From: Stegostoma tigrinum
Taxonomy: Eukaryota
Assembly: GCF_030684315.1 (NCBI RefSeq)
Contig: NC_081360.1
Location: 10,892,599-10,956,598, forward strand
DNA: 64,000 bases
Reading direction: 5' to 3'
Under the pieces are notes generated by a model, which saw nothing but the letters and a program-made list of their open reading frames with translations, had not been told where the DNA came from and did no database searches. Below are positions 47,353 through 57,831 of the stretch, one piece after another (position 1 is the first letter of the stretch; every line of letters begins with the position of its first letter). Made by a program: the position numbers and the translations under genes.

Positions 47353-48040
47353 TGTAATATTTGTAACAAGGTCACTCAAGTGAACCTCATAGAATATGAG
47401 TTCTGCGATTGGCAATGTTAATTTGGTCCAATCAGGGAACCTTGCCTGACAGATGTAAGCTGGAGTGTCAGAGGTCTTGTTTGCTTTGAGAGCTAAATCT
47501 AAGGGAGCAGGATTGTGTTAAGGACTAGTCACATGTTAATAAAAGGTGACTTGGTGACGAGAAACCAGCCTCTATATAGTTACTTCAGCAGTGACGAGAG
47601 AAAAACGCACTCGTGAAGATGTTCACTTTGAGTTGGGGTAAGCAATTCTGACATGATACTATTATTTAAGAAATTAGACTCATTCAATCCTGCTGTTGAA
47701 GATTGGACCCATTATTTGGAAAGAATGTCTTATTTTTCCAGGCAAATGACATGGCAGGTGAAAAGTAATAAGTAATTCTCCTGATAGCTTGTCGACTGCG
47801 GCTGTTTTGGTTATTACGTGCCTAACTTTCTTTGAGGAACCAGATACTACAGCCTTTATGACTTGATAGATTTAGTTAAGGAATATTACAACCTCAAACC
47901 ACCTCTAGTTCTATTTTACCCAGCAATTTGAGAACCAGGGGAATCTATATCGGGATTTTTGACTTGTTTAAGATGACTGGCAGAGGAATGTGACTCTGGT
48001 CTGATCCTTAACGAGATGCTGAAAGATCATTTGGCATGTG
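47353..48040 (+). mobile_element. Gypsy element 5' end: LTR (47353-47587), degenerate PBS and start of gag
   Basis: TG...CA LTR homologous to 59755-59966 and 60777-61010. gcagtgacgagag is a degenerate TGGCGACGAG-type PBS. gag reads KLDSFNPAVEDWTHYLERMSYF...EPGESISGFLTCLR*LAEECDSG..LNEMLKD. Confidence 0.8.
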
Positions 48041-48043
48041 GCA

Positions 48044-48137
48044 CTCTCTGATGAAGGGTCTAGGCCCGAAACGTCAGCTTTTGTGCTCCTGAGATGCTGC
48101 TTGGCCTGTGTGTTCATCCAGCTTCACACTTTATTAA
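48044..48137 (+). mobile_element. Penelope terminal piece with intact hammerhead core (48048-48075)
   Basis: CTGATGA-a-GGGTCtaGGCCC-GAAA-C-GTC followed by the family terminus. Confidence 0.8.
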
Positions 48138-50220
48138 CTATATTTTTGCATTGTTCCTGGCAATGGCTCTTGAGGGGAATGGTTGGTGGTATTCTTGATC
48201 ACTTGATCTTCCCTGGACCTCTGTGGAGTTCCCTTTAGCATGGGTTTTGCACTTGAGGATTGATACCTCCTAGGGCAACTGAATAGCATTAAGTAAGTCA
48301 GAACTTCATTTCCATTTTTGATGGGTGTTCTGGGTGCTATAAGAAACCCACCTTTCAGCTATGAGAGGCCAAAGTGATAGGCCACTCCAAAAGCATATCC
48401 AGAGTCTGTGTAAATATTGGCTTTCTTCCCCTTAGCTAGCTTACATGCCCCCATCGGAGTTCTTAATTCAGCCTGCTATACTGATGTACCAGATGGGATG
48501 CTACCCTGGGCAAGTGTTTCATGTGGTCTTGTTACTGCCAACACAGCCGTACAGATCCAATTTTTTGCAAAGGAGGGCCCATCCATAAAAAGGATCAGGT
48601 CTGGATTCTGCAGGATTCCTCGGATGCCCAGGTGGCTTCATCAAGCTGCAGCAATATTTCAATTTAACATGCTCCCCGTGCTCCCCCTCCTCCCCACTTT
48701 CATCTAACGATACGGGCAACAGTGGCGGAAAAATATGACTAAGATGGATTAGGTGAATATTCAGGGCCTCTAAGACGTCCAGCAGATCCACCAGGCAGCA
48801 GTAACATGAGAGATGCAATACATGGAGAGCATGGCATGGACAGTGTGAGGGCACTTGACAACCAACTTTTGGTCAAGGACAATAGGAGCAGTTACCCTAA
48901 CACCACGACAAGTACATTCCGTAGCCCATAAACAGCTGCCCCAATCCAGAGACACAGGATCCAGGCAAGCAGAGTCGTATCCGTTGAGATGCTGCCTGTT
49001 ATCGTACTCTTGTGTTGGAACAGTTTTCATGCCATCCTGCTCATGGACATGGAGAGTAAAGGGGCACAAAACCAGGCCAGAACATAGAACAGATTTTACA
49101 GCCTGGAACTAGAGCACTGTTCATGGGAGAAAATAACAGAGTCCCAAGAGTTTTTAGAACTCTTAAGGAGATCAGAGAAAGGTTGCACAAGTTGAGAGTA
49201 ACTGTCAGTCCGAGATCTATTAAAATTACAAAGGCCCAAAAAGGATCTTGGGTCTCAGATGGTGGTGGGCTCCTTCATGGAGCGAATGACAGCAGTTCTG
49301 TCCTGAGTAATTTCACATTTGCCAGAGAAGATTTTCTGCCCCAGATAGATGACCTTGCGCTGCACAAGTCAGGCTTTGTGACCTCTAGAATTTATGTGGT
49401 CAAGGAGGGGGCAGAGATCCTGTTTCTGTTGTTCCACTGTGGGAGAGGACATCAGGATGTCATCAACATATTGGATAACGGTAGAGTCCTTAGGACAGAT
49501 CCCCTGCAGATGTTGCTGTACAGCCACATGAATAATAGTTAGACTGCTGCAAAAACCCTGGGGCAGGCTTGTCCAGATGTATTGCTGGCGCTGAATAGTG
49601 AAGGCAAACCAAGGCTGTACCTCAAGGGTGACGGGAACCAACCAAAAACATTTGCCTTATCGATAATAGAGAAAAATTTGTGGTTCGGCGAGAGGTCTTT
49701 AAGAATGGTGGAGGCGTCAGCCACAAGTGGTGGTTTCTGATTTATACATTGATTAGCTTTACAATAGTTGACAGTCAATTGCCAGGAGCCATCAGGTTTC
49801 TTACCAGGCCAAACAGGACTATTAGATGAACTGTGGGTTTTGACAAGGTACCCTGCTGTTCCACGCGTTGGATGACAGGAAGAATGCCAATGATTGAGGC
49901 CAGGCTGATGGGGTATTGCTTAATGCATGGAAGTGCAACCCCCATAAAGGAACAGGAGGCATCTACAAAAGGCCGCAGCCATTCTTAGATTTAACCCCGA
50001 TGGCGTGGTTGTGCCATTCTTCAAGGGACAGTTGTCAGATGGACCAGGTTGTGTGGCCATCGTCAAAATGGATAGATAAATTTATCTGTGTAAGGACATC
50101 CATTGCTAAGAAGGCCTGTTGGACCAGGCCAATGCACAAGGGAGTGACAGTTTCATTAGGGCCCATCTGACCAGGGCAGGTATGGCCTTAGACTTGCGGA
50201 GTCTGTCCCTGCCAGGGCTA

Positions 50221-50465
50221 ACAGTCACTCTGATCCCTCAATCCCAGTTCAAATGAGGTGCTTCAAATGCAAAATGGAGATATGTAAATTTGGCCCATGT
50301 GACAGTCACTCTGATCCCTAAATCCCAGTTCAAATGAGGTGCTTCAAATGCAAAATGGAGATATGTAAATTTGGCCCATGTGACAGTCACTCTGATCCCT
50401 AAATCCCAGTTCAAATGAGGTGCTTCAAATGCAAAATGGAGATATGTAAATTTGGCCCATGTGAC
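50221..50465. repeat. Tandem repeat, 3 x 81 bp
   Basis: Units start at 50221, 50302 and 50383. The only difference seen is ccctca versus ccctaa. Confidence 0.97.
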
Positions 50466-52207
50466 GAGGAAACAATCAATTCCTCTACCTCCTGCTCCCA
50501 CTCATACATAGTAGCCATCACTCCGTTCTTCTAAGGCTGCATATAGAGGGGCCAAGAGGGAGAGGGAGGGTGGCTCCGGTCTTTTGTGAGATCCATCTGC
50601 TGTTTCAGCTGATCACTGGAGCAGTCTTTGAAGTCGTTTCTGCAACGTCATGGAATTCCAACCACAGGGGTTTTGGGAGGGGCACCCCCTTTGGAAACCT
50701 TCCATTCTGTCTGCAATTCATTCCCCAGTGGCCACCATGGCTGCATTTAAAACACCATCAGGGGCATTTATCAGGATTGTTCTCAGGTATAGGGGAGGGT
50801 GCTGCTGCTCGCATAACACACATATTTGGATTCCATATATCTTTCCAAGTGACTGGCTTCATTAATCAAGAAGGCTAAATCATGTCCCAACTCATACTTA
50901 CAGTCTCTATGTTGTTGATTAAGTATTTTGGAAAGTTTAAGCTTCAAGCCAGCTACAAAGGCTGCTTTGATGGAAGCGTATGCTTGCTCCTCTCCTTCCT
51001 CTGGAGTCTCTTTGTGGGCCAAGCCCAAATGTTCAATCCAGGTATCAATAAATCTTTGAGCAAAATTTCTCACATCCTCTGAGCCTTTTTGTTGGCAAGA
51101 TGATATTTTTGTCCAGTCAGTTTTAGGTGGACAATATTCATGTAGCCAATCACAGAGGGCTTCCCATCCCTTATCCAAATCTTGGTCATTTTGTCCCAGC
51201 CTGTCCTTCACCTTTCTAAGCAGTCTTGCTCCAACAGTGGAGCCTTCCATGGCTGTAAGAATTTGGATCCCATCAAATGGATGGAGACGGTAAATGTTTT
51301 TGAATTTCTCCAATTCTGACCATGCCTTGTGACCTTTTTTTGGTGATGGCAGTTCTTTCGAACATTGTTTGCCAATTTGGGATTGGGAGGTTCATGGAGG
51401 CCCAGTACCTAAAATCATAAGGGGTTTTGCTTGTCAGTTTGTCATCTACCAGTTTCCATGTAACCTTTAGTCTGCTGATATCGGACCGTTCGCATCTGGC
51501 TGAGGGTTCCTGTCCTCCTTCCTTTTCAAAGTTGACTTTGAAACAGGACCTATTGGGGCGTTGTGTCCACTTGGGGAATGTTTATAGAGTGGAGGTCTGC
51601 AAATAAGGCTAGGATATGGGCCTTCACCTGATTTAAGGTGTTCTATTTCCTTTAATGCTTTTCTCAGTTCTTCGTTCATTTTTAATTCACTACAGATATC
51701 CTGGCTTCCTGTCTTTATCTTAGTTGTTACATGGCACACAGGGACCAAAGGATTTGTTTTTTTATCCCTGAGTCGGGTTGTTTCTCCCCAGACTTGTTTT
51801 ATATCGTCCAGAGACCATTATCTCATGGAGGCTCCATATTTCTTTGAGATTTCCTTTAAGGTTGAAGAGAGGGCGAATTGTTCAATTTTTTTTTTGTTTC
51901 TGTAAAAGTTCCCTTTCCAATGTATCCAGCAGTGCTTGCCCACCTTTTACTGTGTTGGTAGTTTCTTGGCCATTATTACCACTCTCTTATGTCTCTCAGC
52001 TGTGAAATATTATAGATAATTTTTATTAAATTACTGACAGGGACATCTCCCTTTAAGTAGAGTTCACTGGGAATAGATTCAGGTTTTATCTCTGATCATA
52101 TTGGATGGTATTTTCCAAAGAAAAAGGGTCTGGCCGTCACCCGCAGTCTTTTAGAAAAGAGAAGTTCTTACCTCACTGTTGAGTGAAGCAATGACACTGG
52201 AAAGTGG

Positions 52208-52225
52208 ATCCTGCCACCTACGCCA
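52208..52225 (-). other. Primer-binding site, tRNA-Ser type
   Basis: TGGCGTAGGTGGCAGGAT lies 3 nt after the LTR end. It is 16/18 identical to TGGCGTAGTCGGCAGGAT, the complement of the vertebrate tRNA-Ser 3' end. Confidence 0.8.
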
Positions 52226-52228
52226 AGT

Positions 52229-52625
52229 TGTTGGGATTTTTGTTATGTGAACCAGAGTGAGGGACAGAGAGACACGAAAATATCCTTCATTGTCTTTATT
52301 CAGACAACTTGGTATTATATCTTTCTGAGCTTAAGCAATTCCAGAGTGTAGAAGTGGCCTTCTTATACAGTATTGTAACAGATGCTTGTGTACACAGCAT
52401 TTTTATAGTCATCTGTTTCTTACAACAGACTTCTTTTTTACAGAGTACTGAGTTTATTTACACCCTTAGCATCTAACTCCACCAAATGCTGATATAATCA
52501 GTTCCCCTCCAATGGTACAAAACTACTATTGTTGCCCTGCAAATAGCCATTAAAGATTTTATTAAAGATCTTATTAAGTCCCCTTTAAATATTTCCTGCT
52601 TTGTAGGTTTCCACCAAACCCCACA
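52229..52625 (-). promoter_or_regulatory. 5' LTR of the ERV (~397 bp)
   Basis: The minus strand starts TGTGGGG and ends CCCAACA (imperfect terminal IR). TATAAAAA at 52400-52407 and AATAAA at 52295-52300. Confidence 0.8.
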
Positions 52626-54145: not shown

Positions 54146-54819
54146 CTCTTCGAAAGACAGAATCATACAAGATGGAAGAGGCCCTTTGGCCCACCAAGTC
54201 TGTATTGCCAAAAATATATTACTACTCACACAATTCTCACTTTTCTGCACTTGGCCCTTAGCATTGAATGCTATGACATTTCAGATGCTCATGCAAGTAC
54301 TTTTAAAAAGTTGTGAGGTTTCATATCACAACCACCCTCCCAGGCAGTAAGTGCATTCCAGGCCTCCACCAACCCCTGGGTGAAAATGTTTTTCCTTAAA
54401 TCCCCTCAAAACCACCTGCCTTTCACCTTATTATTGAACAGTAATCTCATATGCAAAAAGAACTCAAAGGCAGGTAGTAAAGACAACCTATGACAACTGT
54501 AATGCTGTGTGTTTTATTGAAAGCTAAGAACTATGGTGAAAACAGGTGTCACAGCATTGCTTGTTTCACATAGTGAAAGCTGGTGTGACTGAACAGTTAC
54601 TTCAAGTTTTGCTCAAATGCTGTTGATCAGTATGAGGTAAGATAACATTGTGACTTTTACGTGTGACAAAAATGACTGTGAGGGATTCTAACATTTGATT
54701 TTAAATAAATAAGGTGACCTTGCATTGTAGTTCATAGGGAGGACAGAAACTGCAAAGCCTGATCACTGCGTCAGGAGCGTATTATTGGCCCAGATTTTGA
54801 AGTGGGAATAAACAGAAAG

Positions 54820-56745
54820 CCTACCTACGTCCGTGACACCACCCACGCCCTCCACCTCCTCCAGAACTTCCAATTCCCTGGCCCCCAACACCTCATTTTC
54901 ACCATGGACCTCCAGTCCCTACACACCTGTATTCCGCATGCAGATGGCCTCAAGGCCCTCCGCTTCTTCCTGTCCCGCAGGCCCAACCAGTCCCCGTCCA
55001 CCGACACCCTCATCCACCTAGCCGAACTCGTCCTCACCCTCAACAACTTCTCTTTCGATTCCTCCCACTTCCTACAAAGGGGGTGGCCATGGGCACCCGC
55101 ATGGGCCCAAGCTATGCCTGCCTCTTTGTAGGTTATGTGGAACAGTCCCTCTTTCGCACCTACACAGGCCCCAAACCCCACCTCTTCCTCCGTTACATTG
55201 ATGACTGTATCGGCGCCGCCTCTTGCTCTCCAGAGGAGCTCGAACAGTTCATCCACTTCACCAACACCTTCCACCCCAACCTCCAGTTCACCTGGGCCAT
55301 CTCCAGCACATCCCTCACCTTCCTGGACCCCTCAGTCTCCATCTCAGGCAACCAGCTTGTAACTGATGTCCATTTCAAGCCCACCGACTCCCACAGCTAC
55401 CTAGAATACACCTCCTCCCACCCACCCTCCTGCAAAAATTCCATCCCCTATTCCCAATTCCTCTGCCTCCGCCGCATCTGCTCCCAGGGTGAGGCATTCC
55501 ACTCCCGCACATCCCAGATGTCCAAGTTCTTCAAGAACTGCAACTTTCCCCCCACAGTGGTCGAGAACGCCCTTGGCCGCGTCTCCCGCATTTTCCGCTA
55601 CACATGCCTCACACCCCGCCCCCGCCACAACCGCCCAAAGAGGATCCCCCTCATTCTCACACACCACCCCACCAACCTCCGGATACAACGCATCATCCTC
55701 TGACACTTCCGCCATCTACAATCCGACCCCACCACCCAAGACATTTTTCCATCCCCACCCCTGTCTGCTTTCCGGAGAGACCACTCTCTCCGTGACTCCC
55801 TTGTTCGCTCCACACTGCCCTCCAACCCCACCACACCCGGCACCTTCCCCTGCAACCGCAGGAAGTGCTACACTTGCCCCCTCACCTCCTCCCTCACCCC
55901 TATCCCAGGCCCCAAGATGACTTTCCATATTAAGCAGAGGTTCACCTGCACATCTGCCAATGTGGTATACTGTATCCATTGTACCCGGTGTGGCTTCCTC
56001 TACATTTGGGAAACCAAGCGGAGGATTGCGGACCGCTTTGCAGAACACCTCCGCTCGGTTCGCAATAAACAACTGCACTTCCCAGTCGCGAACCATTTCA
56101 ACTCCCCCTCCCATTCTTTAGATGACATGTCCATCATGGGCCTCCTGCAGTGCCACAACGATGCCACCCAAAGATTGCAGGAACAGCAACTCATATTCCG
56201 CTTGGGAACCCTGCAGCCCAATGGTATCAATGTGGACTTCACCAGCTTCAAAATCTCCCCTTCCCCCACCGCATCCCAAAGCCAGCCCAGTTCGTCCCCT
56301 CCCGCCACTGCACCACACAACCAGCCCAGCGCTTCCACTCCCCCCACTGCATCCCAAAACCAGCTCAGCCTGTCTCTGCCTCCCTAACCTGTTCTTCCTC
56401 TCACCCATCCCTTACTCCCACCCCAAGCCGCACCTCCATTTCCTACCTACTAACCTCATCCCACCTCCTTGACCTGTCCGTCTTCCCTGGACTGACCTAT
56501 CCCCTCCCTACCTCCCCACCTATACCCTACTCTCCACCTATCTTCTTTTCTCTCCATCTTCGGTCCGCCTCCCCCTCTCTCCCTATTTATTCCAGAACCC
56601 TCACCCCATCCCCCTCTCTGATGAAGGGTCTAGGCCCGAAACGTCAGCTTTTGTGCTCATGAGATGCTGCTTGGCCTGCTGTGTTCATCCAGCTTCACAC
56701 TTTATTATCTTGGATTCTCCAGCATCTGCAGTTCCCATTATCACT
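54820..56745 (+). mobile_element. Longest Penelope-like (Neptune-type) copy: RT + GIY-YIG + hammerhead terminus; inactivated
   Basis: YVRDTT, FTMDLQSLHTCIPH, MAMGTRMGPSYACLF, LRYIDD, FLD.SV, KPTDSHSYL, IPYSQFL, CNRRKCYTC and NVVYCIHCTRCGFLYI(W)ET. Frameshift at ~55078 and stop at 55701-55703. Confidence 0.95.
56618..56645 (+). ncRNA. Minimal hammerhead ribozyme core
   Basis: CTGATGA-a-GGGTCtaGGCCC-GAAA-C-GTC: complete catalytic core, helix II, and a 1-2 bp palindromic helix III. Confidence 0.75.
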
Positions 56746-57831
56746 TTCCCTCATCTTACTTCTTAATCTAGCAGCAACATTGAGAGTCCATACAGGTATT
56801 GTTGAACACATCCTATAATCAATTAAAATTCATTGAATTGATAAGAGCGGTCCCTTTTAATTGTAATATCAATGTTAAAAACTTCCTGAAAAGGTCTTGT
56901 TAATGACATTTAACTGGATTTTGATAGCATACTGTCATTACTATTACTGATGAACTGTTCTGATTTTGGAAAATCAATTTTATGTTCATATAATGTTACA
57001 TTTTCCATTGTAATGTTAAAATATCTACATTTCTTAACTAAATATTTGATTATAGTAATTGAAGAATATATAAATCCTTGAAGTTTATTGGTGATTTTTC
57101 AGCCTGTAATGTATTCCGATCATTTATTTCGTTTCATGTCAAATTTATATGAAGTGAAGGATAATCGGTGCATTTTACTTCCCAGTTTGTTCTCCATGAG
57201 TTTTCTAGAGTGTGATTAGCTCCGTTCCCTGCTTGAAAAACCTTGTACCTCTGAGAGATGCTAATGATATAATTGTCGTGCAGCAGATTCCAACTAATGT
57301 CAGAAATTGGCACTTGTAAGCATTGTTAAATCTTTGTGTGGAACTTTCTTCACGTTAAATAGCAAGTGCCATTGTGTCACCTCTGACCCAAAAATGCAGG
57401 CCACTGTGTTGACCACACCAGATAATACCAGTCAATATAATCCATGGAGGTATATCACAAACTTTTCAGAGATATAGGTGATACTTAGCAACAGGGTCAT
57501 GTTTATTTATATTTCAATTACCTGGATTTTATGATCAAACACAACCAAATTTACCCAGTATTGGTCAACCAACTGGGAGTAGAAGACACAAACTCAGTGG
57601 ATCTTCCAGTCTTTGTCTGTGCTATGTGTTTTATGATATGAATATTATGAAATTATAATTATCAAGAAGACCAACAGAGTAAGGCTCACAGCTCTAGAAA
57701 AGAGAAGGCTGTTGGTCTACTGAATAATGTTAGTTAGAATCATGAGAAAATTTGCTAGGATAGTCCCTGAAAAATTAATAGGAAATTCACAGAAACTTAT
57801 TTTTTGCAGAAGTAGCTAGAATGTTAGATTA

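Follow-up and report, generated by a model that had tools for sequence, protein, structure and literature searches.

A retroviral remnant in the genome of Stegostoma tigrinum raises the question of whether an element whose reverse transcriptase (RT) resembles one retroviral class and whose other domains resemble another was assembled by recombination, or descends from a single old lineage. The element lies on the minus strand at 48140-52625 of a 64,000-nucleotide stretch of contig NC_081360.1 (assembly GCF_030684315.1, positions 10,892,599 to 10,956,598), called the window hereafter, and is a real, decayed, 3′-truncated provirus. An initial annotation had offered a choice between an ancient inter-class recombinant and a deep-branching lineage of cartilaginous fish. 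Our analysis indicates that the provirus likely belongs to a fish retrovirus lineage, lineage X, that is sister to class I (gamma- plus epsilonretroviruses), and that its mosaic look is most likely apparent and not the product of recombination. The locus itself is a functionless fragment and its value sits in the lineage. What is new is the class I-sister placement and a predicted frameshift; the lineage itself is known.

Mixed domain signature and phylogenetic position

The RT, RNase H and Gag motifs and the CCHC zinc knuckle quoted by the initial annotation are all present on the minus strand. In RT we found NSPVWPGKKPDGSWQLTVNY near 49823, IDKAN near 49650 with FW following past a frame break, and YVDD at 49470-49459; RNase H carries ANIYTDSGYAFGV...GFL...TPIKNG near 48420-48320, and Gag carries DWTKISSCQQK near 51115. 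Pfam recognized RVT_1 (E 3e-12) and RNase_H (E 1.4e-5) in the window. The contrast drawn between a class III or spuma-like RT and a class I-like RNase H and tether (the degenerate first RNase H) was reproduced by scores against PDB chains: the RT piece scored 36 bits with foamy virus and 28 with murine leukaemia virus (MLV), and the RT of family copy L021 70 and 41 bits, whereas the window RNase H matched XMRV/MLV at 61 bits with no foamy match and the tether of copy L022 matched MLV/XMRV chains only, at 77 bits. The mixed signature is common to the lineage and not peculiar to this locus.

With the RT of copy L021 as HMMER query, the first match was a spotted-gar protein (P0001, 48%), nearly identical over the part compared to le_oc_ERV2 of Xu et al. 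2018 (PMC6001957); here and below, statements on published work refer to the parts of each source that were covered. In S2 Fig of that paper, le_oc_ERV2 stands below the clade Huo label and beside the pike element Es_lu_ERV3, as read from tip labels and not from branches, and a Gag passage of es_lu_ERV3 resembles the window Gag by eye and has one CCHC knuckle. In all three of RT, tether and RNase H the window was matched best by P0181, which has an intact Pol and an integrase tail assigned by Pfam to MLVIN_C; it scored 90 and 127 bits with the tether and RNase H, against 0 and 22 bits for snakehead retrovirus (SnRV). A close catshark relative is P0004. A word-based RT homolog search found nothing, and no relative was found in IMG/VR. 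Lineage X was defined as the window, its in-genome copies, P0181, gar P0001 and P0002. With a gar protein and the pike element of Xu et al. among its relatives, the lineage is deep-branching, as had been proposed, and is not confined to cartilaginous fish. Class III endogenous retroviruses (ERVs) in cartilaginous fish have already been published.

Deep retroviral branching rests mostly on RT alone, which has been called unstable (PMC8922424). Our trees comprised 29-71 rows picked out of a pool of some 280 proteins together with 26 genomic copies, and domain trees excluded rows with less than 70% domain coverage or with 30 or more residues written as X. Named anchors were P0006 for SnRV and P0088 for FFV, both identified by matching rows of the alignment in supplementary file 7 of PMC2717909, and P0091 for WEHV1; the remaining labels (gamma, epsilon, ERV-L, class II and outgroup) were assigned from RT motifs. 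Lineage X was one clade in RT (100/99), tether (100/98), RNase H (100/91) and integrase (99/99), the integrase sequences coming from other copies since the window has none. It was sister to class I in the tether (97/81), in whole Pol (100/98) and, when class II was included and a mixture model applied, in RT plus thumb (97/93); RT under LG+G4 gave this position weakly (65/91), and integrase grouped X with class I (89/97). Class I without X was recovered in RT (100/99), which places this RT outside the gamma plus epsilon clade, and RT rejected a position within epsilon (p 0.021, 0.014). The RT did not fall in the foamy clade either (Spumavirus, clade Tu), and a Gag knuckle, which foamy viruses lack, is present.

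When lineage X was regrafted onto all branches of a fixed backbone, the place sister to class I was best for RT, for both RT halves, for the tether and for integrase. For RT, 3 of 70 places were not rejected, and the alternatives gave p values of 0.004 (SnRV), 0.0015 (ERV-L), 0.0008 (foamy) and 0.002 (WEHV1). A Huo-like clade holding X was rejected by the tether (p 0.008) and by whole Pol (p 0.005), and was not rejected by RNase H (p 0.115). The class I-sister position was rejected by no Pol domain. Because it is best or not rejected in every one of them, recombination is not needed to explain the element, and of the two origins first proposed the deep lineage is the more likely. The initial annotation had held that grouping of all domains within one described clade would speak against its view; for Pol this is largely what we found, namely one lineage whose RT had already been catalogued.

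The RT motifs regarded as class III (WPV, I/V-DY and NGFW) are ancestral on this evidence, since they are common to SnRV, ERV-L, foamy and, in part, Gypsy RTs. The QDLR pattern of class I would then be a later gain on the class I stem, and the class I-like tether, RNase H, integrase and capsid would reflect shared inheritance, the RT having retained ancestral motifs while the tether, RNase H and integrase had already taken their class I form. Past X branch an eel-cluster protein, P0172, and then another shark and fish group, all with ancestral RT motifs; this order was the same in the tether, in whole Pol and, weakly, in RT.

Integration, envelope and the gag-pro junction

Matches in the 3.2-Gb genome numbered at least 21 to the RT DNA and at least 37 to the long terminal repeat (LTR), both counts being lower bounds. 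The family seeded at least tens of loci, which later decayed. Ten family loci were fetched for comparison: seven align with the window at ~70-75% over long stretches, and three at 66-70% over shorter ones. A chimera formed at the locus itself was considered and ruled out, as the copies align collinearly with the window (70-75%) and RT, tether and RNase H all have P0181 as their best or near-best match. Four LTR pairs showed Kimura two-parameter distances of 0.15-0.18, which with two substitution rates quoted in Han 2015 (PMC4422223) bracket roughly 35 to 410 million years; the family is therefore old, with a date only loosely bracketed.

Target-site duplications (TSDs) were scored at 8 anchored sites out of 10 candidates, a small and decayed sample in which one site (L049) is probably no solo LTR. 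Flanking bases matched at 21/32 positions for 4 bp, 13/40 for 5 bp, 15/48 for 6 bp and 4/24 for 3 bp. The copies favour a 4-bp duplication.

Env remnants, for which the initial annotation had suggested looking in other copies, were found in 5 of the 10 copies tested, through matches to the env of a metagenome relative, L071. This env is of the TLV_coat type (match to copy L022 at E 2e-16), and by similarity to it the remnants are gamma-type. Together with the tether plus second RNase H, the LTR and the primer-binding site (PBS), they support the reading of the element as a retrovirus and not Gypsy.

Neither of the metagenome relatives, L071 and L072, has RT or the gag-pro junction. L071:2690-7676 (+) is a defective lineage X element in which a Gag-like N-terminus continues in frame into tether, RNase H and integrase, without RT; it also has an open gamma-type env, and over pol it is nearly identical to L072. 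L072:539-3112 (+) carries a single 857-aa frame in which lineage X RNase H and integrase are fused to a Bicaudal-D coiled-coil domain (Pfam E 4e-120), a possible host-gene capture by a defective ERV or else a misassembly.

Among 34 Gag-bearing sequences, the best and only significant match to the window Gag was an epsilon-type fish Gag, P0226 (33% over 123 aa, pairwise E 1e-9). Pfam gave E 0.12 only on this Gag, an Atlas search with it returned mixed top matches at 0.83-0.86 (under 0.9), a Gag homolog search was empty and a single-sequence structure model reached a pLDDT of 38.9.

At the gag-pro junction, an A-rich slippery-type heptamer (at most one mismatch) was present in 10 of 11 copies, with a stop adjacent to it in 6. 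The pro leader lies in the −1 frame in 8 of these copies, in the +1 frame in 2 and in the zero frame in 1; in 9 of the 11, the zero frame meets another stop within 15 codons. A-rich slippery heptamers are used in betaretro- and deltaretroviruses. We predict from these frames that Pro-Pol was expressed by −1 ribosomal frameshifting at the end of gag. The class I arrangement, with gag and pro in one frame and readthrough of the stop, does not agree with a −1 pro leader in 8 of 11 decayed copies. A 2026 review (PMC13517186) lists readthrough for gamma, epsilon, SnRV, SSSV and ZFERV.

Taken together, these traits suggest a progenitor of simple LTR-gag-pro-pol-env layout that used tRNA-Ser as its primer, duplicated 4 bp of target sequence and had a gamma-type envelope, with Pro-Pol predicted to be expressed through −1 frameshifting at the end of gag. 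A broader proposal, which we hold to be evenly balanced, is that several fish ERV lineages filed by RT under class III or Huo are a graded stem series of class I, with X as the immediate sister of gamma plus epsilon, combining class I integration and envelope with an ancestral RT, and frameshifting by −1 where its neighbours use readthrough. If so, Huo would be paraphyletic and the series would show the order in which class I traits were gained: a lineage of sharks, gar and teleosts beside class I would place the tether, RNase H, integrase and 4-bp duplication first, and the RT motif later. It also suggests that the mode of gag-pol recoding switched near the class I-sister node.

Alternative origins and known relatives

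Several results weigh against the placement sister to class I and the traits attached to it. The regraft backbone was built from a tree that included the same domains, so that the test is partly circular, and class II was represented by one sequence. With free topology, RT retained a Huo-like clade (p 0.23, 0.19), a group of X with SnRV (0.23, 0.22) and one of X with ERV-L (0.25). One LG+G4 tree of RT plus thumb put ERV-L, not X, beside class I plus II (78/41), and another LG+G4 tree with class II made X sister to class I and II together (58/91). The thumb alone was uninformative, SnRV being nominally best. RNase H paired X with WEHV1 (99/80; 98/92 under the mixture model) and in the regraft barely retained the class I-sister position (p 0.072). 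For Gag, the evidence is the one significant pairwise match to P0226. As for the junction, its 11 copies are mutually related and decayed, none being intact, and no conserved RNA structure was found downstream of the heptamer across them (z −2.05 to +1.58). One unanchored LTR site (L044), read by eye, fits a 5-bp duplication.

The PDB score contrast among domains, the free RT trees that retain X with SnRV or ERV-L, and the position of the gar relative below the Huo label in Xu et al. (PMC6001957) are all compatible with an ancient inter-class recombinant, whose ancestor would have joined a Huo/SnRV-type protease-RT cassette to a class I-type gag, tether, RNase H, integrase and env; retroviral domain replacement has been reported (PMC7947760). 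We nevertheless consider this origin unlikely: it requires two crossovers, RT itself prefers the class I-sister place in several trees and regrafts, and the neighbours P0172 and the P0175 group show the same mix in graded form and consistent order.

It is likewise doubtful that a stem class I lineage exchanged its RNase H alone, in either direction, with the walleye epsilonretrovirus (WEHV/WDSV) line. Such an exchange would explain why both RNase H trees pair X with WEHV1, why WEHV1 was the best regraft position, 16.5 log units above the class I-sister one, and why RT rejects that pairing; but RNase H does not reject a class I that excludes X (p 0.27, 0.26), the domain has 147 columns and left class I unresolved, and WEHV1 was the sole true epsilonretrovirus sampled. 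Very improbable, and already disfavoured, is an ordinary SnRV-like or class III (clade Huo) element with class I likeness through convergence or slow evolution: although a Ser PBS is known in the class III XtERV-S (PMC8278194) and SnRV/Ovex1-related ERVs can have a zinc knuckle and a GPY/F motif (PMC4299795), the tether and whole Pol reject the Huo clade holding X, the tether and RNase H of SnRV score far below those of P0181, and the TSD is of 4 bp, not 5 bp.

Among known systems, the nearest is the Le_oc_ERV2/Es_lu_ERV3 group (PMC6001957): gar P0001 groups with the window in RT and tether, and the es_lu_ERV3 Gag, like that of the window, has one CCHC knuckle. The group was classed there by RT only, and the parts of the paper covered hold no statement on a class I-sister position, TSD or gag-pro junction. 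In the openly searchable literature, subscription papers being outside the search, we found no statement that a le_oc_ERV2-like lineage is sister to class I or frameshifts. With class I ERVs, Epsilonretrovirus (WEHV1) and Gammaretrovirus, lineage X shares the tether, RNase H, 4-bp TSD, single Gag knuckle, gamma-type env and, in P0181, the GPY/F-type MLVIN_C integrase tail; it differs in an RT outside the crown and without QDLR, and in a predicted −1 frameshift as opposed to the readthrough listed for class I (PMC13517186).

SnRV (P0006) has ancestral RT motifs, one knuckle and a fish host in common with X, but its tether and RNase H are distinct, it lies several nodes apart in the whole-Pol tree and it is listed as a readthrough virus; the proposed SnRV-like identity fails for SnRV proper, the tether rejecting that grouping. 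A Ser PBS and a class I-like transmembrane subunit also occur in XtERV-S (PMC8278194), and XtERV-S, ERV-L/ERV-S (class III) and crocodilian ERV4 have similar RT motifs but no Gag knuckle. ERV3/ERV4 are characterized by a 5-bp TSD, no GPY/F and no knuckle (PMC4299795, Table 1), and lineage X departs from all three. Lokiretroviruses, the other candidate put forward, have only the dual RNase H in common with X: their env resembles fusion proteins of negative-strand viruses and their RT is sister to all other retroviruses (PMC7947760), whereas X has a TLV_coat-type env and its RT nests among canonical retroviruses, in trees without a named loki reference.

The locus and its surroundings

The features of the provirus, in window coordinates and in its 5′ to 3′ order, are as follows.

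52229..52625 (-): 5′ LTR, 397 bp, TG...CA; 72-79% match to both LTRs of other copies
52208..52225 (-): PBS for tRNA-Ser, 3 nt past the LTR
50576..51973 (-): decayed gag, interrupted by stops and frameshifts, with an approximate start; 51391-50786, in the capsid/major homology region, is its longest open stretch
50713..50754 (-): single CCHC zinc knuckle, CX2CX4HX4C, read directly
50576..50585 (-): gag-pro junction, A-rich slippery-type heptamer, pro leader in the −1 frame; decayed here
50150..50575 (-): protease remnant, broken by an 81-bp triplication
50221..50465 (no strand): tandem triplication, 81 bp x 3.0, 99% matches, at this locus only
49330..49925 (-): RT core, in three frame pieces
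49109..49329 (-): RT thumb/connection, located by tblastn with P0181 and P0001
48720..49108 (-): tether (degenerate first RNase H), class I-like
48185..48600 (-): RNase H
48044..48140 (+): unrelated repeat tail cutting the provirus; repeat family D6, 8 copies in the window

Of the 18 PBS bases, 16 match the tRNA-Ser(AGA) of this genome at its 3′ end (CCA included), in agreement with the tRNA-Ser assignment made initially. Three tRNA-Ser(AGA) genes with this end were found in the genome; other Ser tRNAs share the same 3′ end. PBS sites like that of the window occur in copies L013, L016, L020 and L022. Pfam gave no match on the zinc-knuckle piece. An intact DTG-type protease motif is present in copy L022, and the family copies align around the 81-bp triplication, which, inside so old an element, either arose much later by local duplication or is an artefact of assembly.

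Alignment to the other copies stops at 48130-48145, and within the window there is no match to integrase or env and no second (3′) LTR. The window copy has lost all sequence 3′ of RNase H. The repeat that cuts the provirus at 48044-48140 is the tail of a retroelement at 54760-56750 (+) with an RT and a GIY-YIG-like motif, which we take by motif to be Penelope-like, Pfam being silent. A decayed frame at 47600-48040 (+), presumably like the N-terminus of a Gypsy gag (Pfam again silent), is cut at the same repeat tail as the provirus, which suggests a deletion junction. A Pfam run on the flanking repeats gave no identification.

Two other ERVs deserve mention. Beside a family copy lies an unrelated class I ERV whose gamma-type gag (Gag_p30, zf-CCHC; L018:291-1550, minus strand) is open over 420 aa. 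The other, represented by L026, L028, L033 and L034, is a second shark ERV family; its RT motifs are ancestral, and RT and tether both group it with horn-shark P0014, roughly two nodes more distant from class I.

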